Below, one piece after another: positions 1-27,383 of a stretch of DNA of 37,385 nt. Both the position numbers and the translations under genes were made by a program. The notes under the pieces were generated by a model. The model was given only the letters and a program-made list of their open reading frames with translations, made no database searches and was not told where the DNA came from. The DNA lies in the IMG/VR virus record IMGVR_UViG_2913123054_000004, one strand, 5' to 3'. Source of the DNA: a virus (Duplodnaviria > Heunggongvirae > Uroviricota > Caudoviricetes). Positions within the stretch are counted from its first letter, which is position 1. Every line of letters starts with the position of its first letter.

Positions 1-1017
1 TCACACTTCTAGCGTTGCGAGGGGGTTGAATTTCAGAGCCGTCTCAAGATGATCGGGTGCTAAATGGGCATAGCGCATAGTCATTTTTATATCGTGATGT
101 CCGAGGATTTTTTGCAAAGCAAGGATATTTCCACCCGACATCATGAAATGCGCCGCAAACGTATGGCGCAGAACGTGTGTCAGTTGACCGCGAGGGAGCA
201 CGATAGACGTTTTTTCCATCACGGATAAAAATTGAAAATAGCAGTCTGTGAAGAAATTGAACCCATCAAGCGCCATGATCTCTTCGTAAAGCTCTTTACT
301 GATAGGGATGCTTCTGTTTTTCTTCCCCTTTGTTCTTACAAAGGTAATTCGGTATTTGGTCACCTGTGAGCGGGTAAGATTTACGGCTTCACGCCAGCGT
401 GCGCCTGTGCTTAAGCATATCTTAACTACCAGTGCCAGAATTGGGTCCTGACGTTTGCAATCAGCCAGCAATTCAACAATCTGCTCATGGGTAAGCCATG
501 CCATCTCTTTTTCTGCGATGGTGAATTTTCGCATGTTCTCCAGTGGGTTCGGATACGACCATTCGCCCAGGCGGGATAGTTCGCTAAAAACACTACTTAG
601 ATAGCTTTGCTCCAGGTTAATGGTGACCGGGCTTGCTCCTTTCTTCCATTTCTCGCTGAAGTAGATCTCACCTGTCAGGCGTTTATCTCGATAGTGGGCA
701 AACATTTTAGAGGTGAGATCAGTTGCAAGGGGATTGCCCAGAGCGTCAACCATCAGCAGCAATTTGTCATAGACATGCTGCCCAGCAGTCAGAGATTTAC
801 CATGTAGTTTGAACCATAGCTCAACCACGTCTTTCAGCGTTCGACGATCCATTGATTCACCCAGCCAGGGCTTTACTTCGGTTTCTTCCATCGTGTGACG
901 CTCAAAAGCCAGAGCTTCGCCTTTGGTGGAGAATTGTTTACGCACACGACGTCCACTACGTCCGGCGGGGTAACATTCGCAAAGCCATTTTCCTGTGGTG
1001 AGTTTTCGTACTGCCAT
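1..1017 (-). CDS. int: Tyrosine integrase, P2/186 type
   Basis: 338-aa ORF with tyrosine-recombinase C-terminal motifs (LSTGARWREA, HVLRHTFAAHFMMSGG, MTMRYAHL). Stop codon sits at positions 1-3; the terminal gene position is as in P2. Confidence 0.9.
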   Translation of the reverse strand: MAVRKLTTGKWLCECYPAGRSGRRVRKQFSTKGEALAFERHTMEETEVKPWLGESMDRRTLKDVVELWFKLHGKSLTAGQHVYDKLLLMVDALGNPLATDLTSKMFAHYRDKRLTGEIYFSEKWKKGASPVTINLEQSYLSSVFSELSRLGEWSYPNPLENMRKFTIAEKEMAWLTHEQIVELLADCKRQDPILALVVKICLSTGARWREAVNLTRSQVTKYRITFVRTKGKKNRSIPISKELYEEIMALDGFNFFTDCYFQFLSVMEKTSIVLPRGQLTHVLRHTFAAHFMMSGGNILALQKILGHHDIKMTMRYAHLAPDHLETALKFNPLATLEV

Positions 1018-1098
1018 AAAAAATGCCCTCCAGTGGAGAGCATTCTTACTGTATATATAACCAGTGTCAATGTATTAGATACATGTTGTCATACATCA

Positions 1099-2076
1099 TC
1101 ACTTTTTGGTAATGATGTCATCATTTGCTGCTGATTTTTTATCTACAAGTGAGCCTAAAATGTTAAATAAATTTGGAGGTGGCTGCGTTTTATCTGCGAA
1201 TGCAGAATTAGCTGACATATTCCAATCTTTAAACACATCAATAGCATCTTGTTTTGTTGCAGTTGAACCATAAATTTGTAAGAAGACCTCACCAAACATT
1301 AGAGCATGTTGTCTGTCTTTTCTTATGATTGCTTCATGTGTGTATTTTTTTGAATTGTTTAAACAAAAATAAGAAAGCCAAGAAAGTAATGCAACCCCAA
1401 GTAAGCCTCGAGTGAAATAATAAAAAAGTTCAATGGGGGTAGTATCTTTTATATCGATTTTATAAAAAAATGTTAAAAAGGCGGCGCTTATAGATAATAA
1501 TGAAAATAGTATTCCGGCTATCGCCCAATTGTAAGACATTGTAGTGAAGTCTTTATCGTCCTGCTGTAGTTTTGCTTTGACGCCTTGCACATATTCAGGA
1601 ACCTTTTCGTCAATTTTCTTTTGTTGAATTTTGCTTGAAAGTTCTTGGTTTTTAAACTGTAGTTCTTTGTTTTTGATGTGTTGGACTTTTAGCTGTGATA
1701 CTAGTTTTTCTTTACTTTCTATTTCATTTGACAATTCCATTTTCAACTTTTCCATTTGCTCTGAATGAGCGTTATGGTTTTTTTGAAACTCGCGTAGTTT
1801 ATGTTCTAATTCCTCAATTTTTAAAAGGTACTTATCTGCTTCACTGTTTTGCAATGATGTATGGTCAGACATGAAGGGGGCATACTTATATTCTTTTTTA
1901 GAAAAATTTCGACTGTAAGCATCAAATAGCATATCGAATTCATCAAACGCTAGAGAATCCAATAGGTTTTTCAAAGTATTATAGGTGTCATTGGTTAAAT
2001 GTGATTTTAATTCTCCTAATTTAATACTTCTAGACGTGTATTTTTCACTATTGCTTTTATAATCAGAACCACTCAT
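1099..2076 (-). CDS. Hypothetical protein: N-terminal coiled-coil region, two predicted transmembrane helices, C-terminal domain; AT-rich moron
   Basis: 325-aa ORF, markedly AT-rich and K/E/N-rich. Hydrophobic segments IAGILFSLLSISAAFLTFF and LLGVALLSWLSYF. Inserted between int and cI where P2 and 186 have no gene of this size. Confidence 0.6.
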   Translation of the reverse strand: MSGSDYKSNSEKYTSRSIKLGELKSHLTNDTYNTLKNLLDSLAFDEFDMLFDAYSRNFSKKEYKYAPFMSDHTSLQNSEADKYLLKIEELEHKLREFQKNHNAHSEQMEKLKMELSNEIESKEKLVSQLKVQHIKNKELQFKNQELSSKIQQKKIDEKVPEYVQGVKAKLQQDDKDFTTMSYNWAIAGILFSLLSISAAFLTFFYKIDIKDTTPIELFYYFTRGLLGVALLSWLSYFCLNNSKKYTHEAIIRKDRQHALMFGEVFLQIYGSTATKQDAIDVFKDWNMSANSAFADKTQPPPNLFNILGSLVDKKSAANDDIITKK

Positions 2077-2088
2077 TCCAATATCCTT

Positions 2089-3033
2089 TTATAATTCTTC
2101 TATCAGAATAAATTTGCATTTTGCAATAACATCAATATCTGAAATTTTACATTCAAATGATAAATCATTGTCTGAAATTTTTAATCTTCCTACAGGTATT
2201 CTAGTTAGGGTTCGAATGCTCACTTTTCCTTCTATTTTAACAATCCATTTACCATCTGTAATTTCATCGAATGATTGATTACATAGGTATGTTTTTTTTT
2301 CGGTGCTAACAATCAATGGTAATTGGATTGAGTCTGGTAGTAACGCTTTATCAAGCATATAGAAATTTGAATCAAATAGATTCCCGTCAGTAATTTTTTT
2401 GTGAGTAATAGCAATTACATCATTTCTTGCATCGTCAAACTTTGGGCCTTTACCAGTAGTTAGCCACATTAGTGAAGTACCCGTTTCGAGAGCGCACTTA
2501 ATTATCCAGTCTGAAGGAAAAACATCACGCATATATCTTGTGGCTAATGTGCTTTTTGAAATACCTAAGTGATCAGCTAAGGCTTGGCGAGTCTTATAAC
2601 CGTAAGCCCTAACAATTCGCTCTATTGCTTCCTTGCCACCCCGAGAATAATCAATGATGTTTTCATTGTCGAACTTTGGTTGTTTATAGTGAACGTCATG
2701 ATAAGAACCATCTTCGGAGTGTGTTTCAACATGCTGTTCTGGTGAAGGAGATGGCATTTGTTCGTCATCATCTGAACCAAATGCTAGCCATTTAATTGAT
2801 GCTCCTGTTTCCATTGAACAGATAACAATCCAATCTGCAGGAAATGTATCGCGGGCATATCTGTTAGCCATCGTGCTTTGGGAAATACCTAGATGGTTAC
2901 AGAATGCTTGGCGTGACTTGAAGCCATAAGCCATGAGTATCCGCTCGATTACTTTCTGACCACCACGATTTTGTATGACAACGGCTTTCATATCGTCATC
3001 AATATGGCGAAATGTGAATTTTTGAGTTGACAT
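2089..3033 (-). CDS. cI: 186 CI-type immunity repressor carrying two tandem copies of the N-terminal HTH domain
   Basis: 314 aa. Residues ~20-85 and ~125-195 are paralogous (IERILMAYGFKSRQAFCNHLGISQSTMANRY...CSMETGASIKWLAFG versus IERIVRAYGYKTRQALADHLGISKSTLATRY...CALETGTSLMWLTTG), separated by an acidic/Pro linker. C-terminal part resembles the 186 CI oligomerisation domain (WIVKIEGKVSIRTLTRIP...FEC). Confidence 0.8.
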   Translation of the reverse strand: MSTQKFTFRHIDDDMKAVVIQNRGGQKVIERILMAYGFKSRQAFCNHLGISQSTMANRYARDTFPADWIVICSMETGASIKWLAFGSDDDEQMPSPSPEQHVETHSEDGSYHDVHYKQPKFDNENIIDYSRGGKEAIERIVRAYGYKTRQALADHLGISKSTLATRYMRDVFPSDWIIKCALETGTSLMWLTTGKGPKFDDARNDVIAITHKKITDGNLFDSNFYMLDKALLPDSIQLPLIVSTEKKTYLCNQSFDEITDGKWIVKIEGKVSIRTLTRIPVGRLKISDNDLSFECKISDIDVIAKCKFILIEEL

Positions 3034-3062
3034 ATTCTTTATGTGAACCTATTCTCCGTTTT

Positions 3063-3079
3063 GTGATGTTGTTATCACG
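3063..3079. promoter_or_regulatory. Inverted repeat GTGAT-N6-ATCAC in the cI/apl intergenic region, candidate operator overlapping a possible rightward early promoter (TTGTGA ... TTAAAA)
   Basis: Dyad symmetry read directly. Sits between the repressor gene and the first rightward early gene. Confidence 0.3.
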
Positions 3080-3121
3080 ATTAAAACCAGCTCACCACAA
3101 GCTAAAAGGAGATGTTGCATC

Positions 3122-3343
3122 ATGACCCCTAACATTTCAATAACTCTGAATACGCCACACGTCACAATTGAGCGTTATAGCGAACTTACTGGTCTTTCTA
3201 TCGTCACCATCAACGATATGTTGGCTGATGGTCGCATCCCTCGCCATCGCCTTCGGAAAGACAAGAAAAGAGAAAAGGTGATGATCAACCTTGCTGCTCT
3301 TACCGTTGATGCACTTACTGATTGCAATGTTGTATTCAACTAG
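3122..3343 (+). CDS. apl: Apl/Cox-like excisionase and transcriptional regulator
   Basis: 73-aa basic protein as first rightward gene opposite cI. RBS AAAGGAGA upstream. Position equivalent to P2 cox / 186 apl. Confidence 0.6.
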
Positions 3344-3375
3344 TTCCATTTTGGGATACATCAGGGGTGTCGACC

Positions 3376-3885
3376 ATGTTTGATTACCAAGTTTCCAAAC
3401 ATCCACATTTTGATGAAGCCTGTCGTGCATTCGCACTGCGCCACAACCTGGTGCAACTGGCAGAACGTGCAGGCATGAATGTGCAGATTCTGCGGAACAA
3501 GCTGAACCCAGCTCAACCTCATTTATTAACCGCACCAGATATCTGGCTACTTACCGATCTGACTGAAGATTCAACGCTGGTAGACGGTTTTCTGGCACAG
3601 ATTCATTGTCTGCCATGTGTACCGATTAATGAGGTGGCAAAAGAGAAACTGCCACATTACGTCATGAGTGCAACCGCAGAGATCGGGCGTGTTGCTGCAG
3701 GTGCGGTATCTGGCGATGTAAAAACCAGTGCAGGTCGTCGTGATGCTATCAGCAGCATTAACTCTGTAACACGACTGATGGCGTTGGCTGCTGTTTCATT
3801 GCAGGCCCGTTTACAGGCTAACCCTGCGATGGCGAGTGCAGTTGATACCGTGACTGGCCTCGGTGCTTCATTCGGTTTGCTGTGA
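3376..3885 (+). CDS. cII: CII-like lysogeny establishment regulator (186 CII homolog)
   Basis: 169 aa from ATG at 3376 ([24 protein letters not shown]...[17 protein letters not shown]...GASFGLL); matches remembered 186 CII closely. The ORF track starts upstream at 3322, but the homolog start is 3376. Confidence 0.8.
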
Positions 3886-5176: not shown

Positions 5177-6030
5177 GCACCATCCTGAAATGGGCGGGAA
5201 ATAAAACCGCAATTATGTCCGAACTGAAAAAACACCTTCCTGCTGGCCCGCGACTGGTTGAACCTTTCGCGGGTTCCTGTGCTGTGATGATGGCGACGGA
5301 TTATCCAAGCTATCTGGTTGCGGATATTAATCCTGATTTAATCAACCTCTATAAAAAGGTTGCCGCTGATTGTGAATCGTTTATATCTCGCGCCAGAGTT
5401 TTATTTAAGGAAGCAAACAGGGAGGTGGCTTATTACAACATAAGGCAGGAGTTTAATTACTCAACTGAAATTACTGATTTCATGAAAGCGGTATATTTCC
5501 TGTATCTCAATCGTCACGGTTACCGTGGTTTATGTCGCTATAACAAGAGCGGGCATTTCAACATTCCCTACGGTAATTATAAAAATCCGTATTTCACTGA
5601 AAAAGAAATTCGTGCATTTGCAGTAAAAGCCCTGCGGGCAACGTTTATCTGCGCCAGCTTTGATGAAACGCTGGCGATGTTGAAGGCGGGGGATGTGGTG
5701 TATTGCGATCCGCCTTATGACGGCACGTTTTCCGGTTATCACACTGACGGCTTCACTGAAGATGACCAGTATCACCTGGCATCCGTTCTTGAACATCGAT
5801 CATCTGAAGGTCATCCGGTCATTGTTTCTAACAGTGACACATCCCTGATTCGTTCGCTGTATCGCAATTTCACTCACCACTACATCAAGGCAAAACGCAG
5901 CATCGGCGTGTCGGCTGGCGAGAGTAAATCTGCAACAGAAATCATTGCTGTTTCCGGGGCGCGCTGCTGGGTGGGATTTGATCCTTCGCGTGGCGTGGAT
6001 AGTTCTGCTGTGTACGAGGTGCGTGTATGA
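5173..6030 (+). CDS. dam: DNA adenine methyltransferase (Dam-like, D12 class N6-MTase)
   Basis: 285 aa from ATG 5173 ([11 protein letters not shown]). SAM-binding motif PFAGSCAV and catalytic DPPY (VYCDPPYDG). Start overlaps the upstream stop and the stop overlaps the A start (ATGA). Confidence 0.85.
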
Positions 6031-8441
6031 GTCATGACGATATGAGCAACTCTAGCGGCTTTAACGAGGTCGCTGTAGCATTTTCATGGAACGGCCCGAA
6101 AAAGGCCATTAACCCTTATCTGGAACCGGCGGAAGTTGCGCCGGAGTCTGCACTTTCAAACATGATCACTCTGTACGCTGCCGATAACGAGCAGGAACAG
6201 CAGCGCCGCGAGGCACTGAGTGATCAGGTCTGGGAACGTTATTTCTTTAATGAATCCCGTGATCCTGTCCAGCGCGAAATGGAGCAGGATAAGCTCATTA
6301 GCCGGGCAAAGCTGGCGCATGAACAGCAGCGTTTTAACCCGGACATGGTCATTCTGGCAGATGTCAGCGCCCAGCCTTCTCATATCAGCAAGCCGCTGAT
6401 GCAACGTATCGAATACTTCAGCAGCCTGGGCAGGCCAAAGGCTTATTCCCGCTATTTGCGTGAGACGATTAAGCCATGTCTGGAGCGACTGGATTGTGTA
6501 CGTGACAGTCAGCTATCTGTTTCTTTCCGTTTTATGGCAAGCCATCAAGGGCTGGAGGGTCTGCTGATCCTGCCTGAAATGAGCCAGGATCAGGTGAAAC
6601 GCCTGTCCACCCTGGTAGCAGCGCATATGAGCATGTGTCTTGAGGCCGCTTGTGGTGATTTGTACGCCACCGATGACGTTAAGCCAGAAGAAATCCGCAA
6701 GACATGGGAAAAGGTGGCTGCGGAAACCCTGCGTCTGGATGTTATCCCGCCTGCGTTTGAGAAACTTCGTCGGAAAAGAAACCGCCGCAAACCCGTGCCC
6801 TATGAACTCATACCGGGTTCGCTGGCGCGTATGTTGTGCGCCGACTGGTGGTATCGAAAATTGTGGAGGATGCGTTGCGAATGGCGGGAAGAGCAGTTGC
6901 GTGCTGTCTGTCTGGTCAGCAAAAAAGCATCTCCCTATGTCAGCTATGAAGCCGTGATGCATAAACGTGAGCAGCGCCGCAAGTCGCTGGAGTTTTTCCG
7001 TTCTCATGAACTGGTGAACGAAGACGGAGACACGCTGGATATGGAAGATGTGGTAAACGCCAGCAGCAGCAACCCGGCACATCGCCGCAATGAGATGATG
7101 GCCTGCGTTAAAGGTCTGGAGCTTATCGCGGAAATGCGTGGTGACTGCGCCGTTTTCTACACTATCACCTGTCCGTCACGTTTCCATTCCACGCTCAACA
7201 ACGGCAGACCCAACCCGACCTGGACAAACGCGACGGTAAGGCAAAGCAGCGATTATCTGGTCGGCATGTTTGCTGCATTTCGTAAGGCAATGCATAAAAC
7301 CGGGCTGCGCTGGTATGGCGTGCGGGTGGCTGAGCCGCACCATGACGGTACTGTGCACTGGCATCTTATGTGCTTCATGCGTAAAAAAGACCGCCGCGCC
7401 ATCACTGCATTACTGCGTAAGTTTGCCATCCGTGAAGACCGCGAGGAGCTGGGTAATAACACGGGACCACGCTTTAAGTCTGAGCTGATTAACCCGCGCA
7501 AAGGAACGCCGACAAGCTACATCGCGAAATATATCAGTAAAAATATTGACGGACGTGGTCTGGCCGGCGAGATCAGCAAGGAAACGGGTAAATCCCTGCG
7601 TGATAACGCCGAATACGTGAATGCCTGGGCGTCTCTGCATCGTGTTCAGCAGTTCCGCTTCTTTGGTATTCCGGGACGTCAGGCTTACCGTGAACTTCGC
7701 TTGCTGGCTGGTCAGGCGGCAAGGCAACAGGGTGACAAAAAAGCAGGTGCGCCGGTACTGGATGACCCGCGTCTTGATGCCATCCTGGCTGCTGCTGATG
7801 CTGGTTGTTTTGCCACCTACATCATGAAGCAGGGCGGCGTACTGGTTCCCCGCAAATATCACCTTATCAGAACCGCTTATGAAATTAACGAAGAGCCGAC
7901 CGCCTATGGCGATCACGGTATTCGTATTTATGGCATCTGGTCACCCATTTCAGAGGGCAAGATCTGCACTCATGCAGTGAAGTGGAAAATGGTTCGTAAG
8001 GCCGTTGACGTTCAGGAGGCGGTAGCCGACCAGGGCGCTTGCGCCCCTTGGACTCGTGGCAATAACTGTCCCCTTGCTGAAAATTTGAACCAGCAGGAGA
8101 AAGATAAATCAGCTGATGGGGACACCAGAACGGTCATTACCCGCATGGATGACAAGGAGTTGCACGATTACCTGCACAATATGAGCAAAAAAGAGCGCCG
8201 GGAACTGGCAGCAAGGTTACGCCTGGTGAAACCGAAACGGCGTAAAGACTATAAACAGCGAATTACAGACCATCAGCGACAGCAGCTCGTCTATGAACTG
8301 AAGTCCAGAGGATTTGATGGCAGCGAGAAAGAAGTCGATTTACTTCTTCGCGGCGGCAGTATTCCGTCAGGAGCAGGCCTGCGTATCTTCTATCGGGACC
8401 AGCGTCTGCAGGAGGATGATAAATGGCGGAACCTGTATTAA
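6027..8441 (+). CDS. A: Replication initiation protein A (rolling-circle endonuclease)
   Basis: 804 aa with HUH-type motif (TVHWHLMCF) and tyrosine-containing YIAKYISKN. Size and position as P2/186 gene A. Confidence 0.9.
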
Positions 8442-8534
8442 TTACGCTGATTAACAATTAATGCTCTAAATAATAAGCAAAGGATAAATCCTATTGATTT
8501 TAAAAAAACTTTTTACTTTAACGATATTATTATG

Positions 8535-8554
8535 TACTGTATATAAAACCAGTG
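8535..8554. promoter_or_regulatory. LexA (SOS) box-like operator, TACTGTATATAAAACCAGTG, upstream of the DinI-family module
   Basis: CTGT-N8-CCAG with AT-rich spacer, one mismatch to CTGT-N8-ACAG. A perfect inverted half TATACAGTA follows at 8561-8569. Confidence 0.4.
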
Positions 8555-8596
8555 GTTAAGTATACAGTATTGTCTACCCACAGTGAGATAGGAGGG

Positions 8597-8788
8597 AAGA
8601 TGCAGGATTATTTTTTAGAGTCGTTGAAACTCCAGCGAATTGATTTTTTTCTTAAGCTTGTAGTGGCCAGTGAATGTAGTGATCAGGAAAAAGAGCTTGC
8701 GCTGCTTTGGATTTCAGAACTGACGGATGAACTCATGGCAAAAATCAGAACCCACGAATATAACCGCTCAATGGATGTTGTTAACTGA
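8597..8788 (+). CDS. Hypothetical small protein, first gene of the putative SOS-controlled module (possible Tum N-terminal-like part)
   Basis: 63-aa ORF from ATG 8597 (MQDYFLESLKLQ...); track alternative start at 8552. AT-rich. Immediately upstream of the DinI-like ORF. Confidence 0.4.
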   Translation, partial: KMQDYFLESLKLQRIDFFLKLVVASECSDQEKELALLWISELTDELMAKIRTHEYNRSMDVVN

Positions 8789-8798
8789 GGGGCAATTT

Positions 8799-9032
8799 AT
8801 GCGCATTGAAATAATGATCGATAAAGAGCAAAAAATTAGCCAGTCTACCCTGGACGCCCTTGAATCCGAGCTTTACCGCAATCTGCGCCCCCTGTATCCC
8901 AAAACGGTAATTCGCATCCGCAAAGGTAGCTCTAACGGTGTGGAACTGACCGGACTGAAACTGGACGAAGAAAAAAAACAAGTGATGAAAATTATGCAGA
9001 AGGTGTGGGAAGACGACAGCTGGCTGCATTAA
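8799..9032 (+). CDS. DinI-family protein (DNA-damage-inducible protein I-like; Tum C-terminal-like)
   Basis: 77 aa, MRIEIMIDKEQKISQSTLDALESELYRNL...MQKVWEDDSWLH, aligns with E. coli DinI (MRIEVTIAK...ETWESADDWF). RBS GAGGGG upstream. Confidence 0.75.
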   Translation: MRIEIMIDKEQKISQSTLDALESELYRNLRPLYPKTVIRIRKGSSNGVELTGLKLDEEKKQVMKIMQKVWEDDSWLH

Positions 9033-9161
9033 GAAACGTTGCCCCCAGGAGGATTCATTCTGATGGGGGCTGGTTTGGGCAACGAGTGAAACGAGGCGTA
9101 AGGTGGGCGGACATTTGCCCCAAATTGATAACACTCGTTAAGCTACTTTCCTGATGGATGC

Positions 9162-9497
9162 TTAAGAACGGTCATTCTGTTTAGTTTTCATGAGTGAATC
9201 CCGAATCTTCGCAAGGTTTGAATTTTCGGGGACTGAATCCATGTACGGATCGCGCTCAAACACTAATTGCTCAGATTCAACGAAAGCCCGCCACTCTACT
9301 GGGTCTAGCTCAAACTCCATCGCAGACATATCACTTTCATCTTCCCCCTCGATCCAGTGGACTAAATAAAACAATTCATCATCAGGAGAGTCATCATCGT
9401 CATCAACAATATCAATGTCGGTTACAGTGATGCGTAGGGTGGGATCGATTTTTGAGACATAAATCCCTAACTGTGGCATAGCGGGAATATTGTTCAT
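9162..9497 (-). CDS. Hypothetical highly acidic protein
   Basis: 111-aa ORF with RBS AAAGGA; strongly D/E-rich (DIDIVDDDDDSPDDE, EGEDESD). Confidence 0.55.
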   Translation of the reverse strand: MNNIPAMPQLGIYVSKIDPTLRITVTDIDIVDDDDDSPDDELFYLVHWIEGEDESDMSAMEFELDPVEWRAFVESEQLVFERDPYMDSVPENSNLAKIRDSLMKTKQNDRS

Positions 9498-9876
9498 GAA
9501 AATTCCTTTATTGTTGTTTGCTATTTGAATAAAAATACGCCAAACAGAGTGCTTGCTGTGAATATGGCAAGAATCGTTGTAAGTATCCCGCTAAGATGCC
9601 CCATTCTTTTTTGGAGGTCCTCTTGCATATGGATTATGTTGCCCGAAAACTAACTTCCGTTCCTCGCTCACAGCGGACTTTCATCTTTGTAAACCTGTAT
9701 GTTTCGTTTTTCAAGCGGTCATTCAGATACGGATTTTCACGACCCTCGGCAGTGCATGACTATGCCGCATGAATCCGCATGATCGTTTGGGGATCGTTTT
9801 TGCTGAGGCCCGCCAGAGCTGGCGTGCTTTTGCTTATGTCATGCAGGTGCATGAAAACCACTGCATAAAGCGGGCA

Positions 9877-9895
9877 GGCGTGGCGGGGATACGAG
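9877..9895. other. cos-like site (cohesive-end sequence of P2/186 type)
   Basis: GGCGTGGCGGGGA matches the first 13 nt of the 19-nt cohesive ends as I remember them (P2 GGCGAGGCGGGGAAAGCAC, 186 very similar). Lies in the 550-bp non-coding gap between gene A side and gene Q side. Confidence 0.45.
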
Positions 9896-9937
9896 CGCGC
9901 GTTAAGTCATATAAGAGTTATATATTGATTTGATTGC

Positions 9938-9966
9938 TGGACATACATACAGTGTCGCTCTATCAT
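9938..9966 (+). promoter_or_regulatory. Candidate sigma70 promoter for the kinase/HIRAN operon (TGGACA-N17-TATCAT)
   Basis: Hexamers with 17-bp spacing, ~80 bp upstream of the 10048 start codon. Confidence 0.3.
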
Positions 9967-10047
9967 CTAATAAATCTTAGGGTATTTGACAATGTTTGGA
10001 TAAAATGGAACCTAACTTATTCATAATCCGCTAAACAGGGATGTCAG

Positions 10048-10962
10048 ATGCCATACCAATTGGTAGAGCTTAGCCCCGTAGCTAACGATCTTGAACAGTT
10101 AGGAACCAAAGAGAAGTTTTGGTTCTATTTCTCCGATGACACTGTAAATTTGCAGTTGTTTAAGTACTCTAGGCCAGGTACTGGCGAGCATTGGTCTGAA
10201 AAGTGTGCTGCTGAGTTATGTCATTTGCTTAACATTCCACATGCTAGCTATGATTTGGCGCGATACAATGGTCGATTCGGTGTGGTGACTCAGAATATCA
10301 TTCCATCTGGTTTCCGGATGGTAATGGGAAATGAAGTGCTTCACAGTTCGACATTCGATTATCCTGGGCCTTTACAAGCCGGGGAAAAGCCGGTAAGGGT
10401 CAGAGAACACACTGTCACAAGGGTCTTGGGTTGTTTAGATAGGGAATCTATCAAGCCTCCTCCGAGTGTATATGATCTAACCGGGCTAAATGCAGCAGAT
10501 GTATTTTGTGGATATTTGATGCTCGATGCACTTGTGAGTAATCAAGATCGCCACCATGAAAATTGGGCAATCATGCTTAACAATGAAACTGGTGAGCAGT
10601 TTTTGTGTCCAACATACGATCATGCCGCTAGTTTAGGAAGGGAGATGTTAGATGATGAGCGTAACGAACGGCTTAATACTAAAGATAAAAATCGACAAAT
10701 CCCATGTTTTGTAAGAAAAGCTCGCTCTGAGCTATTCAAAGCAAAAACTGATAAAAAGCCCTTGCTGACTGTTGAAGCATTTCAACATGCAGTTGAAGGG
10801 AGAGTTGCCGCTCGCGACCATTGGTTAGGTAAGTTGAGCGTTTTAACAGAAGATTCCATTACAGATGTGTTTAACCAAGTGCCTTCATCGTGTATATCCG
10901 ACAGTGCACGTAGATTTGCAACGTTAATGGTAATGGAAAATCGCAGAAGGTTACTAGAATGA
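10048..10962 (+). CDS. HipA-family serine/threonine kinase, short form (core kinase domain only)
   Basis: 304 aa. P-loop-like LGTKEKFWF near the N-terminus, catalytic-loop motif DALVSNQDRHHENWAIM, metal-binding LCPTYDHAAS; same order as in HipA/HipT. RBS AGGGA upstream. Confidence 0.8.
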   Translation: MPYQLVELSPVANDLEQLGTKEKFWFYFSDDTVNLQLFKYSRPGTGEHWSEKCAAELCHLLNIPHASYDLARYNGRFGVVTQNIIPSGFRMVMGNEVLHSSTFDYPGPLQAGEKPVRVREHTVTRVLGCLDRESIKPPPSVYDLTGLNAADVFCGYLMLDALVSNQDRHHENWAIMLNNETGEQFLCPTYDHAASLGREMLDDERNERLNTKDKNRQIPCFVRKARSELFKAKTDKKPLLTVEAFQHAVEGRVAARDHWLGKLSVLTEDSITDVFNQVPSSCISDSARRFATLMVMENRRRLLE

Positions 10963-11699
10963 CTAATACAAACTCCGTTTACGTCGCATGGCAGGCACCA
11001 GATACCAGAGACTGGCATGTTGTTGGTAACTTGCAAGAGCGCAAATCGGGGTATGTTTTCAGGTATACCAAAGGTGCTCTTAAATCTTCTAAATTTACAA
11101 AGTTTAGCGGCATGAGTGATGTTCGTGAAACTTATGTATCGGAAGAATTGTTTCCTCTTTTTAAAAATCGCCTTTTATCACCGAGACGTCCAGAGTATCC
11201 GAGTTTCATTAAATGGCTTGGATTTGAAGAAGATAAGGTAAATCCTATCGATATTCTTGCTCGCTCGGGAGGCTTACGAAGCACTGATCAGCTGCAGATT
11301 TTCAAAAAAATTGATTTTGATTCTGATGGTAACTTTGAGCATTTTTTCTTCTTACATGGACTTGGTTACTTGAATAGCTTAGCTAATGCTCGTGTATCTG
11401 AATTGAAACCGGGGCAAATTTTGCGTCTTTGCTTGGATCTTCAAAATGAATACGATGGGGATGCTGTTGTCGTTCGTGCAGATAAACCAGCTGAAATCGT
11501 TGGTTACTGCCCTAGGTATTTAAGTAATGACATCAAGAAGATGTTATTGGATGATCCAAAATCAATCACTTTAACGGTCGAAAAGATTAGTGATGATGCT
11601 CCTCATAACTATCGGTTATTATGTAAATTATCAGGGGTACTAAGCCAAGCCTGTCAATCGACGCTGATTCCTCAAGATGAGTTTGAACCTATTGAGTAA
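10959..11699 (+). CDS. HipS-like (HipA N-terminal subdomain-like) protein with C-terminal HIRAN domain; putative partner/antitoxin of the kinase
   Basis: 246 aa. Start overlaps kinase stop (ATGA). N-terminal half shows HipA N-subdomain-like patterns (EELFPLFKNRLLSPRRP, PIDILARSGGLRSTD). C-terminal ~90 aa has HIRAN hallmarks (LQNEYDGDAVVV...EIVGYCPRYL). Confidence 0.75.
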   Translation: MTNTNSVYVAWQAPDTRDWHVVGNLQERKSGYVFRYTKGALKSSKFTKFSGMSDVRETYVSEELFPLFKNRLLSPRRPEYPSFIKWLGFEEDKVNPIDILARSGGLRSTDQLQIFKKIDFDSDGNFEHFFFLHGLGYLNSLANARVSELKPGQILRLCLDLQNEYDGDAVVVRADKPAEIVGYCPRYLSNDIKKMLLDDPKSITLTVEKISDDAPHNYRLLCKLSGVLSQACQSTLIPQDEFEPIE

Positions 11700-11705
11700 A
11701 TGAAG

Positions 11706-11729
11706 AAAAGCCACCAAACGGTGGCTTTT
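11706..11729. terminator. Bidirectional intrinsic terminator hairpin between the HIRAN gene and portal gene Q
   Basis: Perfect stem AAAAGCCACC / GGTGGCTTTT with 4-nt loop AAAC, T-run on the plus strand and A-run on the other side. Confidence 0.6.
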
Positions 11730-11733
11730 CTTA

Positions 11734-12771
11734 TTATGGGGCTATATCTAGCGAGTAGGTATCAAACCGTATCGCCTCCTTGCCAAGCCAATCATTCATC
11801 TCCTGTAATCGCTTTTGTAGTGGCATTAGCTCATTTCGGACGAATACACGGCTTGCCTTCTCCACATCCCCAAACCCCCCGACATTATTAGGCATAATCC
11901 CCATCATCTGAGGCGGTACGCGGTGCGCAGCCATCATGTCATCACGGCTGACGTTCTTGATGTTCAGAAATTCATCCTTCGCTGCGACTTCTGACAATGG
12001 GATAATCTGAAGTCCGTCTTTTTTACCATTAGGCGAGTACATAAACAGATTGCGGAAGTTACCCGGACCTTTGGCGCTTTTCATTGCGTTGCGGAGGTTG
12101 TTCACATCCTCCTGGTTCTGCGCAGCATCGGTCATGTACATGATGAAGCCTGCATGACTGCCGTTAATGTAATACCTGCGGCGGAACAGCGTGGCGGACT
12201 CGTTGAGCAGAGCTGACGGAATGGCAGAAAGATAACCGGGCAGGCCGTAGATCTCCTGGTTAATGTCCGGTTCCATCAGATGAAAAATGCTGCCTTTCGT
12301 GAACTGATACGGCTGGGTTGTCATACCGTATTGCACAAACCAGTAGGTATCCAGGTCTAACCCACGTCGGGTGTATTTCGCCAGGGCAGGTTCAAGGGCG
12401 ATAACTTCACCGAAGCGGTTCGTACGTTTCTCCAGGTAGGCGTTACCAAATACCAGATAGTCTTGCACAAAACGTGAAAAAGCCTGCTGGCTGAGTAGCG
12501 GGTGAGGGATGTAGGTACTGGTCAGAATGTTGCATTTCACCGCAATTGGTGAACTGTGATGCACGGCAGCGCGGAAGGTGCGCGCCAGTCCGTCAAAGCT
12601 TACTGGCGGTTCATACCAGCGATCTGTCTGTACGCATTCCACATAGTCCAGCAGTTCACGGCGGTCCAGAACAGGAACGGGATCGCCAAAGCTGAATGTT
12701 TCGGCTGAAGTCTGGCTTTTATGCTGAATCTGGGTCGTCGACGCAGTGCGGCTCTTCTTACTCTTTCCCAT
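11734..12771 (-). CDS. Q: Portal protein (P2 gpQ-like)
   Basis: 345 aa; size, position and divergent Q-P / O-N arrangement as in P2. Confidence 0.9.
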   Translation of the reverse strand: MGKSKKSRTASTTQIQHKSQTSAETFSFGDPVPVLDRRELLDYVECVQTDRWYEPPVSFDGLARTFRAAVHHSSPIAVKCNILTSTYIPHPLLSQQAFSRFVQDYLVFGNAYLEKRTNRFGEVIALEPALAKYTRRGLDLDTYWFVQYGMTTQPYQFTKGSIFHLMEPDINQEIYGLPGYLSAIPSALLNESATLFRRRYYINGSHAGFIMYMTDAAQNQEDVNNLRNAMKSAKGPGNFRNLFMYSPNGKKDGLQIIPLSEVAAKDEFLNIKNVSRDDMMAAHRVPPQMMGIMPNNVGGFGDVEKASRVFVRNELMPLQKRLQEMNDWLGKEAIRFDTYSLDIAP

Positions 12772-23569: not shown

Positions 23570-24942
23570 GCACAAAATTTTATACCCTGCTGACGGATAT
23601 TGGCGCGGCGAAACTTGCCAGCGCCGCCGCGCTCGGTGTGCCTGTAAAAATTACCCATATGGCGGTCGGCGATGGCGGCGGAACATTGCCAGCGCCGGAC
23701 GCAAAGCAGACGGCACTGGTAAATGAGAAACGCCGGGCTGCGCTGAATATGCTCTATATCGACCCGCAGAACAGCAGCCAGATTATTGCTGAACAGGTGA
23801 TCCCTGAAAACGAGGGCGGTTGGTGGATACGTGAAGTGGGCCTGTTTGATGAGTTCGGGGCATTGATTGCCGTGGGCAACTGCCCGGAAAGCTATAAGCC
23901 GCAACTGGCTGAAGGCAGCGGGCGTACCCAGACCGTGCGTATGGTGCTGATAACCAGCAGCACGGACAATATCACCCTGAAAATCGACCCTGCTGTAGTG
24001 CTGGCAACCCGCAAGTATGTGAATGATAAGGTACTGGAGCTGAAGGTGTACGTGGATGACCTGATGGCAAAACATCTTGCCGCACAGGACCCACATTCAC
24101 AGTATGCACCCAAAGAAAGTCCGACGTTTACCGGAACACCCAAAGCGCCAACGCCAGCGGCGGGGAATAATACTACGCAGGTTGCGACCACCGCGTTTGT
24201 ACAGGCGGCACTGCTCACCCTGATTGACGGTGCACCAGCCACGCTGGACACGCTGAAAGAAATTGCAGCTGCTATTAATAATGACCCGAAATTCAGTACC
24301 ACCATTAACAATGCGCTGGCACTCAAAGCACCGCTGTCGAGTCCGGCACTCACCGGAACGCCAACAGCACCTACTGCGGCACAGTCGGTCAACAATACAC
24401 AGATTGCCACCACGGCATTTGTGAAATCGGTGATTGCAGCAATGGTAGGCTCTGCACCTGCGGCACTGGATACGCTGAACGAACTGGCGGCGGCACTGGG
24501 GAATGACCCGAATTTTGCCACGACAATGCTTAATGCGCTGTCAGGTAAACAACCGCTGGACAATACGCTGACTAATTTGAGTGGAAAGGATGTTGCTGGT
24601 CTTCTCGCATTCCTGGGTTTGAAAAACGCCGCACAACGCGACGTTGGGACTGGCACAAATCAAATTCCTGACATGAACGCTTTTAGCTCTGGCTCTGGCT
24701 GGCAGAAATTACCTGGAGGCAGGATTCTGCAGTGGCGGGGAATAGACAATGGCCCTGGGGATATTACAAGCCCGCTACCCATTCCATTTCCAAATCGCGC
24801 AATAGGATGGGCAATTACGTCCGATTATGTACCAGGGTCAGGCGGAGTTGGCACAATAGCCGGGACGTGTACTGCAACGAATATCATTTCACGAAATACA
24901 AATGTGAGCACTGGTGGTAGCGCTATCGTAGTGGGGGAATAG
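23566..24942 (+). CDS. H: Tail fibre protein (P2 gpH-like) with internal tandem repeats and a variable C-terminal domain
   Basis: 458 aa; conserved N-terminus; two ~73-aa tandem repeats (SPTFTGTPKAPT... / SPALTGTPTAPT...); Gly-rich C-terminal domain. Confidence 0.85.
   Translation: MSTKFYTLLTDIGAAKLASAAALGVPVKITHMAVGDGGGTLPAPDAKQTALVNEKRRAALNMLYIDPQNSSQIIAEQVIPENEGGWWIREVGLFDEFGALIAVGNCPESYKPQLAEGSGRTQTVRMVLITSSTDNITLKIDPAVVLATRKYVNDKVLELKVYVDDLMAKHLAAQDPHSQYAPKESPTFTGTPKAPTPAAGNNTTQVATTAFVQAALLTLIDGAPATLDTLKEIAAAINNDPKFSTTINNALALKAPLSSPALTGTPTAPTAAQSVNNTQIATTAFVKSVIAAMVGSAPAALDTLNELAAALGNDPNFATTMLNALSGKQPLDNTLTNLSGKDVAGLLAFLGLKNAAQRDVGTGTNQIPDMNAFSSGSGWQKLPGGRILQWRGIDNGPGDITSPLPIPFPNRAIGWAITSDYVPGSGGVGTIAGTCTATNIISRNTNVSTGGSAIVVGE
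24118..24558 (+). repeat. Two tandem ~219-bp coding repeats inside the tail fibre gene
   Basis: Repeat 1 24118-24336 and repeat 2 24340-24558, diverged at DNA level but clearly paralogous at protein level. Confidence 0.5.
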
Positions 24943-24944
24943 GT

Positions 24945-25367
24945 ATGAGAACGTATCGCTATGACGCAATAACAAACGCATTTTATCCGTATGAGCTACA
25001 GAATGAGTATGAACAAGCAGGGATGTGGCCGGAGTCGGGCCATGATGTGAATGAAGATATTTTTCAGCAATTCATCAACCCTCCCGCAGGTAAGGTGCGT
25101 GTTGCCGGGAATGACGGAATGCCAGCATGGGGGGATATTCCGCCACCGGCTCATGATGAACTCGTTGCGGTAGCAGATGTGAAAAAAGCAGCACTATTGG
25201 CAGAAGCGTCAGTCGTTATCGCCCCGCTGGCTGATGCGCAGGCGGGCGGTTATATCGATGACGCTGACGTGCCGCGACTGGCAGCATGGCAGAAATATCG
25301 CTATGCACTGACGAAAGTGGATACATCAACTGCGCCGGATATCACCTGGCCGCTGCAACCAGTGTAG
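24945..25367 (+). CDS. G: Tail fibre assembly chaperone (P2 gpG-like)
   Basis: 140 aa immediately after H. Confidence 0.8.
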   Translation: MRTYRYDAITNAFYPYELQNEYEQAGMWPESGHDVNEDIFQQFINPPAGKVRVAGNDGMPAWGDIPPPAHDELVAVADVKKAALLAEASVVIAPLADAQAGGYIDDADVPRLAAWQKYRYALTKVDTSTAPDITWPLQPV

Positions 25368-25471
25368 AAATCTTTAGTGTAAATCGTCAAAGATGCTGGC
25401 GACTTGATGATCGATGACGGTATCAGTGATGATAATTTACAGGTTGTACGGGAATAATACATGACAATTTG

Positions 25472-25513
25472 AATGGGGTATAATAGATAAATAATACATC
25501 ATTATACCCCATT
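25472..25513 (+). terminator. Hairpin (13-bp perfect inverted repeat) after the tail fibre genes, probable terminator
   Basis: AATGGGGTATAAT, 16-nt loop, ATTATACCCCATT, followed by TTCG. Confidence 0.4.
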
Positions 25514-25551
25514 TTCGCTATTATCTATTGGCAAAAATATTCTTAATGCCT

Positions 25552-26589
25552 TTATATTTGCCTACCTCCTAATAAAATGTGTGAGGTGTATTTGTTGGTT
25601 TTCAATAACCTTGCTACAATTATGCAGGTGGTTACAATAAGGAAAACAAATGAAGGGGTTATGATGAGGTTATATATGAGTGGATTTTCGCATAGGTTAT
25701 TAATGTTCACGTATGCCTCTATTCTGTAAAAAATAAACGACGAGATTATATAGATGGGAAAGGTGTAAGTACCGACAAAGGATGTGGCTCGTATAAATAA
25801 ATTGTTTTTCGTTGATAAAAATGTATAAGCATATATAAGCGATATGCTTCCGGCGAAGCCAATGAAGTAGCGAAATATAATAATGAATGATTGATGCCAG
25901 AAATCAACATTCTCATATGTCATTTTAGATATGTAAATATAATACTCTCTATTCCATAGGAGAAGCATGCCAATCCATGTTAATACGGATAACACACCAA
26001 TTTTGTGCCTATTTCTAGAGGCAAAATCTAAAATGCGATGGGCGGATATACCAGCGATAAAATAAGGGGCCATAAATTTAATTTTGTCCATATTCCAATC
26101 ATCTCCATATGCAAGGGATATACTAAATATCAGTAAATAAAGCACCACAGAATATTGTTTGCTTATTGAGTGACAAATAGTATAAACAATAGATACTGCA
26201 AAGAGTGCAGAAAGGAACCAGAAGGCGTAGATGGCTCCATATCTAATATTTATTAAATTTATATCTCTTCCCACAAAAATGGATTCAGCAATGAACCATG
26301 CAATGGATGGGATTATTAACTGCATGAATTTTCTTTTGATAATTGATGATGGTTTTCTCTTGAGAGAAAAATAGAAAAGATAGCCGCTAAGCAGCATAAA
26401 AAATGGCATGTGGAAGCTGTAAATGGTAATAAATAATGGGTTGTCAAAAAAATTTAAACTATCTTTTTTTACAAACTGAATTGAATGGCCCCACACGACA
26501 AAAATTATAGCTAATCCTTTCATTGAGTCTATAATGGAATTTCGAGTGCTGGGTGTCTCTGTTATAATAAGATGTGGTTCGTTTTTCAT
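25552..26589 (-). CDS. Acyltransferase family 3 membrane protein (O-antigen/LPS acetylase-like), probable lysogenic conversion gene
   Basis: 345 aa, ~10 hydrophobic segments, AT-rich; family-typical motifs GLAIIFVVWGHS and HMPFFMLLSGYLF near the N-terminus. Confidence 0.8.
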   Translation of the reverse strand: MKNEPHLIITETPSTRNSIIDSMKGLAIIFVVWGHSIQFVKKDSLNFFDNPLFITIYSFHMPFFMLLSGYLFYFSLKRKPSSIIKRKFMQLIIPSIAWFIAESIFVGRDINLINIRYGAIYAFWFLSALFAVSIVYTICHSISKQYSVVLYLLIFSISLAYGDDWNMDKIKFMAPYFIAGISAHRILDFASRNRHKIGVLSVLTWIGMLLLWNREYYIYISKMTYENVDFWHQSFIIIFRYFIGFAGSISLIYAYTFLSTKNNLFIRATSFVGTYTFPIYIISSFIFYRIEAYVNINNLCENPLIYNLIITPSFVFLIVTTCIIVARLLKTNKYTSHILLGGRQI

Positions 26590-26920
26590 TTAATTTGTCA
26601 ACTTTAGATTGAGTGGTATAAGAATTGCAACTAAACACTCGTGAGCTAATATTTACATATATTATCAATGATCATTAATTCAATCAATTAGGAATTGCTT
26701 TATTGTATGTAACAGATTCTCATTTTGGGGTAGATGCTACTATTGCTGTCATCACACCATAAATTAAGTCCATTCATATTAGATATCTTGGGTTGTTCCG
26801 GGAAGTACACGGCCACTATCAGTAAATGTGTGGTAAGAGCTTCACCAGTCGAACGTTTTTGAAAATACAGAGATAATGGCCAACAGGCATCATCCCCGGT
26901 TTTTATTTAGGGGGATGCTC

Positions 26921-27232: not shown

Positions 27233-27289
27233 TCTCCCTGAATCAGCATTATTTTGATTATCCCTGCAAGCAGACAAATACCGTCATTT

Positions 27290-27307: not shown

Positions 27308-27383
27308 ACTGCGCTTAGCTGTTTGTCAGGCACAATCACTTCAACATAGGGCGAAGCCTAATCCAATCAGGAGGTTCGCCGCT

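Follow-up and report, generated by a model that had tools for sequence, protein, structure and literature searches.

The open reading frame at 1099-2076 of the window (the whole stretch of viral DNA analysed here, 37,385 nucleotides) is a horizontally acquired cargo put into the lysogenic operon of a 186-like prophage, in the order pL/pE -> cI -> gene -> int. It encodes a 325-aa membrane protein and is a credible candidate for a single-gene anti-phage defence. Our preferred reading is tentative, and we give it a little less than an even chance. It holds that the cargo is expressed in the lysogen and acts as a single-protein defence. A variable cytoplasmic sensor would be joined to a conserved effector with two transmembrane (2TM) helices, which would abort infection.

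The gene lies on the minus strand with an ATG start, and its coordinates are those of the original prediction. The locus has the following features.

1099..2076, minus strand: complete CDS of the 325-aa membrane protein, with an ATG start and the stop codon at 1099-1101.
2084..2088, minus strand: AAGGA Shine-Dalgarno (ribosome-binding) site, 7 nt 5' of the ATG, read directly from the sequence.
2089..3033, minus strand: cI repressor, 314 aa, with two tandem HTH domains (PF07022 twice, and PF16452).
1..1017, minus strand: integrase (int), the downstream gene of the operon (PF24624 and PF00589).
1018..1075, minus strand: int leader, conserved and outside the cargo in the comparison with a sibling prophage.
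1076..2446, unstranded: divergent low-GC block with the 325-aa gene and the C-terminal (oligomerisation) domain of cI, delimited by blastn against the sibling prophage L010.

This ORF is a real gene. Its product is 100% identical to WP_240730902.1 (Escherichia sp. E4385). A word-indexed search gave 135 homologues of the protein, and a profile search gave 426 clusters of relatives at 50% identity. These counts, together with a dN/dS of 0.05-0.12 in the conserved module, reject a chance ORF. The AT-rich, atypical composition noticed originally is also real. The gene has a GC of 0.321 (GC3 of 0.273), against 0.475 in int and 0.502 in the window, and the low-GC patch extends over the C-terminal third of cI (GC 0.287).

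The three genes cI, cargo and int are co-oriented on the minus strand, as had been noticed, in the arrangement of the lysogenic operon. The cI gene is the upstream member of the operon shared with the cargo. The gap from cI to the 325-aa gene is 12 nt, and the gap from the latter to int is 81 nt. The cI stop codon (2089-2091) directly abuts the AAGGA site, so the gene has no space for a promoter of its own. In the annotated record of phage 186, cI abuts int and the slot is empty; there, a single lysogenic operon runs from pL/pE through cI to int. This bears out the earlier claim that the slot has no counterpart in P2/186. Since the gene lies inside the lysogenic operon, its product should be made continuously in lysogens. 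The window begins at the prophage end adjoining rcdA. Beyond cI, the plus strand carries an apl/cox-like ORF, cII (PF06892) and fil.

The protein is divided into seven parts.

1663..2076, minus strand: aa 1-138, hypervariable N-terminal region, from identity, dN/dS and AlphaFold2 helices.
1531..1662, minus strand: aa 139-182, conserved pre-membrane helix (mean pairwise identity 58%).
1462..1530, minus strand: aa 183-205, transmembrane helix 1 (TM1), a strong Kyte-Doolittle peak with W184 and G188 conserved.
1426..1461, minus strand: aa 206-217, K/R-poor loop, probably periplasmic.
1357..1425, minus strand: aa 218-240, transmembrane helix 2 (TM2), a moderate Kyte-Doolittle peak.
1174..1356, minus strand: aa 241-301, conserved basic C-tail, the family signature (mean pairwise identity 83%).
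1102..1173, minus strand: aa 302-325, variable low-confidence C-terminal end, from AlphaFold2 and the family alignment.

The coiled coil, the two hydrophobic helices (Kyte-Doolittle 183-205 and 218-240) and the C-terminal tail described originally are all present. The AlphaFold2 model is all-helical. It has a three-helix domain at aa 4-62 and a disordered linker at 63-77, after which the long coiled coil begins; one continuous helix (78-204) then enters TM1. The pre-membrane helix shows the motif QQ.kIDEKvPeYV..VK.KL..DD..F and runs unbroken into TM1, whose pLDDT is >90 in the module-only model. The loop between the TM helices measures 12-17 aa across the family. In TM2, R223-G224 and W233 are invariant among the close family, and distant relatives have K/R-G. 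The two TM helices are followed by helices 241-269 and 275-292, so that a SLATT-like layout (2TM plus a conserved cytoplasmic helical extension) is present. The K/R count is 5.4 in the 15 residues after TM2 vs 1.4 in the loop, and no signal peptide precedes the charged N-terminus of 180 aa. [quoted passage not shown]

Conservation is very uneven along the protein. The N-terminal region has a mean pairwise identity of only 17-20% within the family. The C-tail is the most conserved part of the 325-aa protein (motif SKKYTHE.I.RKDRQHALMFG..FLQIYGST..K.DA..VFKDWNMS..SAF), and even relatives at 15-30% identity all keep its H257, G262, F282 and W285. Likewise, dN/dS is 0.30-0.56 in the N-terminus vs 0.05-0.12 in the conserved module. 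The region-wide value of the N-terminus stays <1, and positive selection is not demonstrated. We propose that aa 1-138 act as the sensor or determine specificity.

The gap between cI and int is a cargo-swapping site, and the 325-aa gene is a variable cargo (a 'moron') with atypical base composition. Homology to the sibling L010, which uses the same attachment site, is restricted to 11-1075 and 2447-3400. The int gene and the N-terminal region of cI are kept at 86-96% DNA identity, and the block 1076-2446 is replaced. Alternative cargos are found in loci L008, L010, L027 and L028; L004 has extra genes beside a family member. Sibling prophages and phages carry a two-gene DUF4747 cassette in the cI-int gap. 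In phage vB_EcoM-813R9, the slot holds a 558-aa membrane-anchored coiled-coil protein with, by eye, a GIY-YIG-like C-terminus; the family profile does not match it. In Brenneria, the gap holds a KAP NTPase that matches PifA and PADLOC PDC-S20, a candidate defence gene. In Yersinia, it holds a bPH_3/SHOCT protein.

This allele is present in 7 of the 5426 complete E. coli genomes, and the int/cI backbone in 1135. By DNA similarity, about 3% of the complete E. coli genomes have a family member. All five E. coli loci inspected have it in the cI-int slot. Deeply diverged alleles of the family, at about 40-56% identity (local BLASTP), fill the identical slot in prophages that share the attachment site, and the 3' part of the gene is about 70-76% identical to other alleles. 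A tblastn search of 50,697 deposited phage genomes found the 325-aa gene in none of them. A cI-int hotspot is recorded in K139-like P2-related vibriophages (PMC9122126), and P2-like phages have a minor defence hotspot from integrase to primase (PMC13586616). Most of the alternative cargos have no assigned function, so the label 'defence hotspot' rests on a few examples and the literature.

The original prediction recognised no family for the protein, and this holds in Pfam, NCBIfam, PADLOC and the PDB. Only PHROG 2628 matches (E 5.7e-71, 240 bits, residues 28-319 on profile positions 27-309 of 314). It is the same family as the window protein and has no functional annotation itself. The other PHROG matches were to three families with E>0.1, none of them an exclusion family. 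Scans of Pfam and NCBIfam gave only coiled-coil or composition noise (MKT1_N, DUF2207_C, SMC). None of the 5027 models of PADLOC-DB v2.0.0, which takes in the Rousset, Vassallo, Millman and Gao systems and the PDC candidates, matched; the only hit was DruC, with E 0.094 over a coiled-coil stretch. A profile search against PDB sequences found coiled-coil noise only. Foldseek searches of the PDB with the full and module-only models gave nothing below E 0.24, only generic helical hairpins. Their recurrent weak matches to the alpha-pore-forming toxins AhlB/SmhB, to ExbB/TolQ and to ESCRT-III are not significant. No description of the family was found in the literature.

One Pfam resemblance is to DUF2207_C (PF20990). 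The window protein scores 18.4 bits (E 0.0019), below the gathering score of 33. Sub-threshold matches over the coiled coil and TM helices occur in 24 of the 59 close members (best E 4.7e-07). However, the match is gone from modules trimmed of the coiled coil, and it leaves the signature C-tail uncovered. It most likely reflects the composition of a coiled coil plus TM helices. Homology to a housekeeping membrane protein, named originally as a refuting result, was not found, and this identity was rejected. A holin or spanin was also rejected, having the wrong phage module and the wrong architecture.

In distant relatives, a TIR domain or EAD11 adaptor domains stand in place of the variable N-terminus. 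TIR_2 is present in 12 of the 59 distant relatives (up to 75 bits, cutoff 28), at residues ~4-115 and with the module directly after. One of the 59 carries two EAD11 domains (83 bits), and one has a weak sub-threshold DUF4062 match on top of its TIR domain. The TIR fusions are proteins of 305-326 aa and stand-alone genes; ten long relatives (376-438 aa) were scanned for TIR, and none was found. Distant relatives match the PADLOC models ThsB, TIR-TM, Aga_TIR and SAVED_TIR. These models contain TIR, and matches are expected only from TIR-bearing relatives, so they presumably arise through the TIR domains. The TIR-fused relatives lie on short contigs or among unremarkable genes. When the word-indexed search was repeated with the distant alignment, Enterobacterales matches dominated and nothing was added. 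Chimaeribacter has solitary chromosomal copies of the family without any prophage genes. EADs are described as adaptors through which conflict systems are connected with effector or signalling domains (PMC7159879). A functional tie of the EAD11 relative to its adjoining STAND/TPR NTPase and trypsin-like protease was rejected: the N-terminal domains of these have no similarity to EAD11, and only adjacency is left.

The occurrence of the family outside prophages was missed originally. So were the conservation of the C-tail, the hypervariable N-terminus and the inclusion of the C-terminal domain of cI in the divergent block.

Among known systems, the SLATT 2TM effectors of CBASS and of type VII Thoeris (ThsH) are similar in layout, with two TM helices and then a conserved basic cytoplasmic helical region. 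They are part of conflict systems and are proposed to breach the membrane on activation. Type VII Thoeris, a validated design, combines a TIR protein with a 2TM SLATT effector (bioRxiv 10.64898/2025.12.03.692087). TIR is a partner there through a separate ThsB gene and, in the distant relatives here, by fusion. Nevertheless, the window protein does not match SLATT_1 to SLATT_6 or SLATT_fungal of Pfam at E<=1. No Pfam SLATT was found in the 59 close relatives (E<=0.01), or in the 59 distant relatives and the window protein (E<=0.001), which makes 119 family members. Ten trimmed modules matched neither SLATT nor any other pore-former in Pfam, even at E<=10. The window protein also has a long conserved pre-membrane helix and a coiled coil N-terminal to the hairpin, and it is a lone gene without a nucleotide-generating partner. 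In it and in its Enterobacterales relatives, no TIR or other generator of a nucleotide signal was found as a domain or a neighbour. It differs in this from Thoeris-like TIR signalling, since TIR appears only in the distant relatives. The best reading, by analogy, is a protein that may work like SLATT-type effectors and yet is no detectable member of SLATT.

In the preferred reading, a single-protein defence, the hypervariable three-helix domain and the coiled coil would sense either a component of the phage or a cue of infection. The signal would travel along the continuous helix to the membrane. There, the module (pre-membrane helix, 2TM hairpin and basic C-tail) would oligomerise or rearrange, the inner membrane would be compromised and the infection aborted. 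In the distant relatives, the TIR domain or the EAD11 adaptor would be the sensing end, with the same membrane module as output. The TIR fusions can also be read in reverse: TIR would then be the effector, and the membrane module would sense or anchor. A guess of superinfection exclusion or abortive infection had been made originally. It is better grounded now by the swapping of cassettes between cI and int and by the TIR and EAD11 fusions of the membrane module.

A bolder version of this reading, which we consider doubtful, is that the pre-membrane helix, the 2TM hairpin and the C-tail form an undescribed immune effector domain with swappable sensors (TIR, EAD11, helical repeats or coiled coils). 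The prophage alleles would then be phage-specific sense-and-kill switches, and their specificity would be re-programmed through swaps of the N-terminal region. The tail with the invariant H257, G262, F282 and W285 might bind a ligand, a TIR-derived nucleotide for instance, or serve in oligomerisation.

If the defence reading is true, the defences carried by prophages in E. coli and other Enterobacterales would grow by a compact single-gene membrane system, and a new 2TM effector module that also occurs in TIR proteins of other phyla would be defined. The natural allelic series, with a conserved module and unrelated N-termini in one slot, would be a system for studying effector-swappable sensor coupling. 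The 186-like lysogeny operon would be worth searching for new systems beside the known gpA-to-portal hotspot. For phage therapy, the gene would be an additional candidate determinant of lysogen resistance.

Direct exclusion at entry is an unlikely alternative. From the cytoplasmic side of the inner membrane, the N-terminal region would bind a phage protein (ejection or tape-measure) or else an injection factor of the host, and DNA delivery would be blocked without killing. The logic is analogous to that of P22 SieA, T4 Imm, HK97 gp15 and the membrane-bound nuclease SNIPE, and it suits a prophage-encoded inner-membrane protein, presumably expressed in the lysogen, with a hypervariable domain of interaction type facing the cytoplasm. 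In the P2-related vibriophage K139, the exclusion protein Glo is encoded in the matching int/cI region. P22 SieA/SieB, T4 Imm, lambda RexB and K139 Glo are, likewise, small to medium inner-membrane or envelope proteins expressed in lysogens that act on other phages. However, no homology to them was detected in the PHROG, Pfam and PADLOC scans, and no superinfection-exclusion family of PHROG was matched. In addition, the window protein is built differently, with an N-terminal coiled-coil region of 180 aa and a conserved tail, both probably cytoplasmic. Glo, for its part, is periplasmic, and RexB has four TM helices and requires RexA.

The slot protein of vB_EcoM-813R9 also favours exclusion at entry. 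By eye, it is SNIPE/PD-lambda-1-like, with an N-terminal TM helix, a coiled coil and the GIY-YIG-like C-terminus. SNIPE/PD-lambda-1 is a membrane-bound nuclease acting during genome injection (preprint 10.1101/2025.11.03.685801). It shares with the window protein a membrane-anchored, elongated and mostly cytoplasmic single-gene design, with diversified N-terminal and middle regions. Nevertheless, SNIPE has one N-terminal TM helix, DUF4041 and a GIY-YIG nuclease. The window protein lacks enzymatic domains of any kind, nucleases included, and carries its TM hairpin in the central and C-terminal part. Exclusion at entry also fits poorly with only ~12 periplasm-exposed residues. The cytoplasmic tail is the most conserved part, with its invariant H/G/F/W, and suggests an activity or a ligand site instead of a passive plug. 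The TIR and EAD11 domains of the relatives are hallmarks of signalling or suicide systems.

More improbable is a reversal of roles, in which the hairpin and tail would be a membrane sensor or scaffold (for example, of envelope perturbation at injection) and the N-terminal region the output. In the TIR relatives, the output would be NAD+ cleavage. In the prophage version, a non-enzymatic coiled coil would recruit or sequester a host or phage factor. The sole recognisable enzymatic domain of the TIR fusions is indeed N-terminal, and it has a Glu of the catalytic type known from TIR NADases. The membrane and the coiled coil are joined by a continuous helix in the AlphaFold2 model. Kiwa KwaA and Zorya ZorAB are known examples of sensors embedded in the membrane, and ZorAB has a long coiled-coil tail (PMC11785009, PMC11946911). 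Conversely, fast variation in conflict systems usually marks the sensor, and constancy the effector. The description of EADs as fused to effector or signalling modules (PMC7159879) fits the module as effector. Moreover, the Pfam, PADLOC, PHROG and NCBIfam scans show neither an enzymatic domain nor a known output domain in the N-terminus of the window protein.

The least probable alternative is a lysogeny accessory or host-fitness factor with no anti-phage role, such as a modulator of CI, Int or induction, an addiction-like toxin or a membrane factor of lysogenic conversion. The known defence models are unmatched, and the gene is a member of the lysogeny operon whose translation is almost coupled to that of cI. 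The variable 5' part and the C-terminal domain of cI are one divergent block, exchanged together, but the two are neighbours with a conserved homology arm on either side, which is enough to explain the linkage. Siblings with the same int and the same N-terminal domains of cI carry unrelated cassettes and phage 186 lacks the gene, so it is dispensable for lysogeny. The relatives without a surrounding prophage and the TIR and EAD11 fusions also argue against this explanation.

The int leader has two further elements. The first is a hairpin, GCTCTCCACTGGAGGGC, followed by ATTTTTT right before the int ATG and overlapping the GGAGG ribosome-binding site of int; it was found by eye and is absent from the terminator-scan listing. 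The second is a promoter-like site, TTGACA-17-AAGAAT, at 1070..1042.

The 325-aa ORF is a real gene, located within the cI-int lysogenic operon and placed as in the original prediction. The window features considered here are:

1..1017, minus strand, tyrosine integrase (int; PF24624 and PF00589), downstream of the membrane-protein gene
1018-1075, minus strand, int leader, conserved in siblings with different cargo
1099..2076, minus strand, membrane-protein gene (ATG start, 325 aa)
2089..3033, minus strand, CI repressor (cI; two PF07022 helix-turn-helix domains and PF16452), upstream of the membrane-protein gene
10048-10962, plus strand, low-GC cargo ORF of the gpA-to-portal stretch
10959-11699, plus strand, second low-GC cargo ORF of that stretch
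25552-26589, minus strand, 'acyltransferase family protein' in the tail-fibre-region insert

The cI stop lies 12 nt before the gene, and an AAGGA ribosome-binding site is present 7 nt ahead of its ATG. In the curated record of phage 186, cI abuts int with nothing between, and both form one lysogenic operon with pL and pE. Therefore, the gene lies inside this operon, and the earlier statement that 186 has nothing comparable was correct. Beyond the divergent promoter region, we found an apl/cox-like ORF, cII (PF06892), fil, DUF5347 and DUF2732. Further along the same side are a TraR/DksA protein, a Dam methylase and the gpA replication protein. These flanking genes identify the element as a 186-like member of Peduoviridae. 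Its integration site adjoins rcdA in near-identical E. coli loci.

The gene shows a GC content of 0.321 (GC3 0.273), compared with 0.475 for int and 0.502 for the window; the 3' third of cI is inside the low-GC patch too. A word-indexed search gave 135 homologues, and an exhaustive profile search gave 426 clusters at 50% identity. One protein is 100% identical (WP_240730902.1, Escherichia sp. E4385). The names are 'hypothetical', except a few derived from the coiled coil (ZapB, 'intermediate filament family protein'). In the 90% cluster of protein P0001, many database entries are fragments (66-123 aa) that lie at contig ends or bear the label 'partial'. Such fragments suggest frequent assembly breaks in or near this gene, possibly owing to related copies in several P2-like prophages that share the conserved 3' part.

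The cI-int gap is a cargo-swapping site. The int/cI backbone is matched by 1135 of 5426 complete E. coli genomes, and the window allele is present in seven of the 5426. In a comparison with a sibling prophage integrated at the same rcdA site, only 11-1075 and 2447-3400 are homologous, so the exchanged block consists of the membrane-protein gene and the cI C-terminal domain. This oligomerisation domain (2089-2446, GC 0.287) shares the divergent block with the gene. In the siblings both are replaced jointly, while the cI N-terminal domains and int remain 86-96% identical. The joint replacement could reflect a functional link or mere adjacency.

Other cargo occupies the same gap elsewhere. A DUF4747 gene and a 201-aa gene fill it in the sibling prophage and in Klebsiella phage 4LV2017. 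Escherichia phage vB_EcoM-813R9 (L027 1390-3066) encodes a 558-aa protein annotated as 'chromosome segregation ATPase'. It has a membrane anchor at the N-terminus and coiled coils, and its C-terminus carries a GIY-YIG/T5orf172-like motif (GHVYIISN...YKIGMT...); by eye it resembles the architecture of SNIPE/PD-lambda-1 (preprint 10.1101/2025.11.03.685801). In Brenneria corticis, the gap holds a family member plus a KAP NTPase matching PADLOC PDC-S20 (E 9e-83) and PifA; in Yersinia rohdei, a family member plus a bPH_3/SHOCT protein. Alleles of 314, 325 and 329 aa occupy the identical slot in otherwise similar prophages. They share ~40-56% identity by local BLASTP, which covers part of the protein only, and their N-termini align poorly. 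The 3' part of the gene has DNA matches in 154 of the 5426 genomes, one per genome and all chromosomal. Outside E. coli, five of eight species-level loci have the gene between cI and int. The literature agrees in outline: a cI-int hotspot exists in K139-like P2-related vibriophages (Rousset et al., PMC9122126), and the integrase-to-primase interval holds 8% of P2 defence systems in a 2026 survey (PMC13586616). In E. coli WCHEC020031 (L029 2093-3313), the lysogenic operon contains an ISL3-like ISKox3 transposase, inserted after a 314-aa family member and before int; int would thereby be separated from pL.

Conservation in the family is sharply bipartite.

Mean pairwise identity along the 325-aa protein:
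aa 1-138, N-terminal region, 17-20%
aa 139-182, pre-membrane helix, 58%
aa 183-240, hairpin, 52%
aa 241-301, C-tail, 83%

The C-tail carries the motif SKKYTHE.I.RKDRQHALMFG..FLQIYGST..K.DA..VFKDWNMS..SAF. H257, G262, F282 and W285 are invariant down to relatives with 15-30% identity. Hence, the C-terminal 'tail' of the original prediction is the family signature. We refer to the pre-membrane helix, hairpin and C-tail as the module. Between the window allele and two close alleles (L031 and L032), dN/dS was 0.56 and 0.30 for the N-terminus, and 0.12 and 0.05 for the module. Synonymous divergence from L032 was 1.12 for the N-terminus and 0.43 for the module. These values indicate that the module is under strong purifying selection, and that the N-terminus had a faster history, partly separate from the module's. 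These two comparisons give no support for positive selection on the N-terminus.

Hydropathy places membrane helices at aa 183-205 (strong) and 218-240 (moderate), with a 12-residue loop between. AlphaFold2 (59-sequence alignment, pLDDT 73) gave an all-helical protein:

aa 4-62, small three-helix N-terminal domain
aa 63-77, disordered linker
aa 78-204, single continuous helix, the coiled coil leading directly into TM1
aa 214-269, return helix
aa 275-292, short helix

A model of the module only (aa 135-325, 117 sequences) reached pLDDT 79 and pTM 0.61; its hairpin exceeded a pLDDT of 90. The family averages 5.4 K/R in the 15 residues past TM2 vs 1.4 in the loop, and no signal peptide precedes the charged 180-residue N-terminus. 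Thus, both termini are most likely cytoplasmic and the loop alone periplasmic.

Pfam, NCBIfam and PADLOC scans gave no significant family. Sub-threshold matches to DUF2207_C were lost once the coiled coil was trimmed. Among 119 family members, none matched a SLATT model, and 10 trimmed modules gave no such match even at E<=10. Searches of the PDB by sequence and by fold returned generic helical hairpins only. The sole membership is PHROG 2628, without assigned function. None of 50,697 deposited phage genome records has the gene, and we found no description of the family in the literature.

The exhaustive profile search, followed by domain scans of 59 distant matches (named sources include Pseudoalteromonas, Vibrio and Methylomicrobium), shows what else precedes the module. 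Twelve of the 59 carry TIR_2 at about residues 4-115 (37-75 bits, gathering score 28), with the conserved helix, hairpin and tail directly after it. They retain the glutamate that acts as catalytic residue of TIR NADases. The TIR-bearing P0253 has a weak sub-threshold DUF4062 match across the TIR region. One relative, P0285, has two EAD11 'effector-associated' domains (83 bits), two have MgtE_N-like helical repeats, and the rest have unrelated coiled coils. The module is thus a constant part joined to interchangeable N-terminal ends. Several of these ends are hallmark domains of immunity in prokaryotes. EADs are described as adaptors that link conflict systems with effector or signalling domains (PMC7159879), and type VII Thoeris, which pairs TIR with a SLATT 2TM effector, has been validated experimentally (bioRxiv 10.64898/2025.12.03.692087). 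The link of the module to TIR/EAD11 proteins appears not to have been described previously.

At L021 5550-11095 (GCA_027488935.1), a 963-aa AAA_16/TPR STAND-type NTPase, with a trypsin-like protease ahead of it, is found 550 nt upstream of the EAD11-fused relative. By eye, the NTPase and the protease appear to share an N-terminal helical EAD-like domain, without similarity to EAD11. This region may be a conflict-system island.

In three Chimaeribacter species (L006, L007, L009), the gene (about 5400-7000) is a lone chromosomal insert flanked by LysR-type regulators and metabolic genes; at least two of the three species share the insertion site. The neighbourhood has no integrase and no other phage gene, so the function does not require CI, Int or a prophage.

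The gene is probably an anti-phage gene. A tentative mechanism, somewhat short of an even chance, is single-protein defence. By analogy with the 186 operon, the gene would share the cI transcripts, made from pL in lysogens and from pE while lysogeny is being established. The variable cytoplasmic N-terminus would sense a phage component. The effector would be the conserved 2TM module and its basic tail, which would compromise the inner membrane. A variable sensor with a constant effector is the usual pattern, which favours this mechanism, as do the fusions to EAD11 and TIR, a candidate defence gene in the swapping slot of at least one relative, and the autonomy of the family outside prophages. 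The protein matches no known pore-former, which counts against this mechanism. The TIR fusions also allow TIR to be the effector and the module the sensor, a second point against it. A non-lethal block at genome entry is unlikely. Reversed roles of the two halves are quite unlikely. A lysogeny or host-fitness function is about as unlikely, and is weakened by sibling prophages that manage without the gene.

Lysogen-expressed prophage cargo, single-gene membrane defence and 2TM effectors are already familiar; neither the family nor its conserved module has been curated or studied. The gene is one of many unvalidated hotspot genes, and a well-supported, testable defence candidate with a natural allelic series.

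The window CI (314 aa) has two tandem PF07022 domains followed by the PF16452 C-terminal domain. In contrast, phage 186 CI (579 nt) and the cI of loci L004, L008, L027 and L032 are about 190-210 aa long, with one PF07022 domain. With its DNA-binding domain duplicated, a 186-type repressor could have a changed operator geometry. In the int leader, a 7-bp hairpin (GCTCTCCACTGGAGGGC) followed by ATTTTTT stands immediately ahead of the int ATG and overlaps the int GGAGG ribosome-binding site. A promoter-like TTGACA-17-AAGAAT (1070..1042) lies just upstream of it. The hairpin was absent from the terminator scan output. Through this leader, int expression from the lysogenic transcript might be attenuated or uncoupled.

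Low-GC cargo also occupies 8441-11734, the classical gpA-to-portal hotspot of P2-like phages. In the nearest E. coli loci, PGAP names a HIRAN domain protein, a DinI-like protein and two hypotheticals, and one of the 5426 genomes shares at least 80% of this stretch. In the tail-fibre region (24900-27400), a low-GC insert (0.35-0.41) adjoins a recombinase (invertase). Its acyltransferase is possibly an O-antigen-modifying lysogenic-conversion gene. This insert is common to only one complete E. coli genome.
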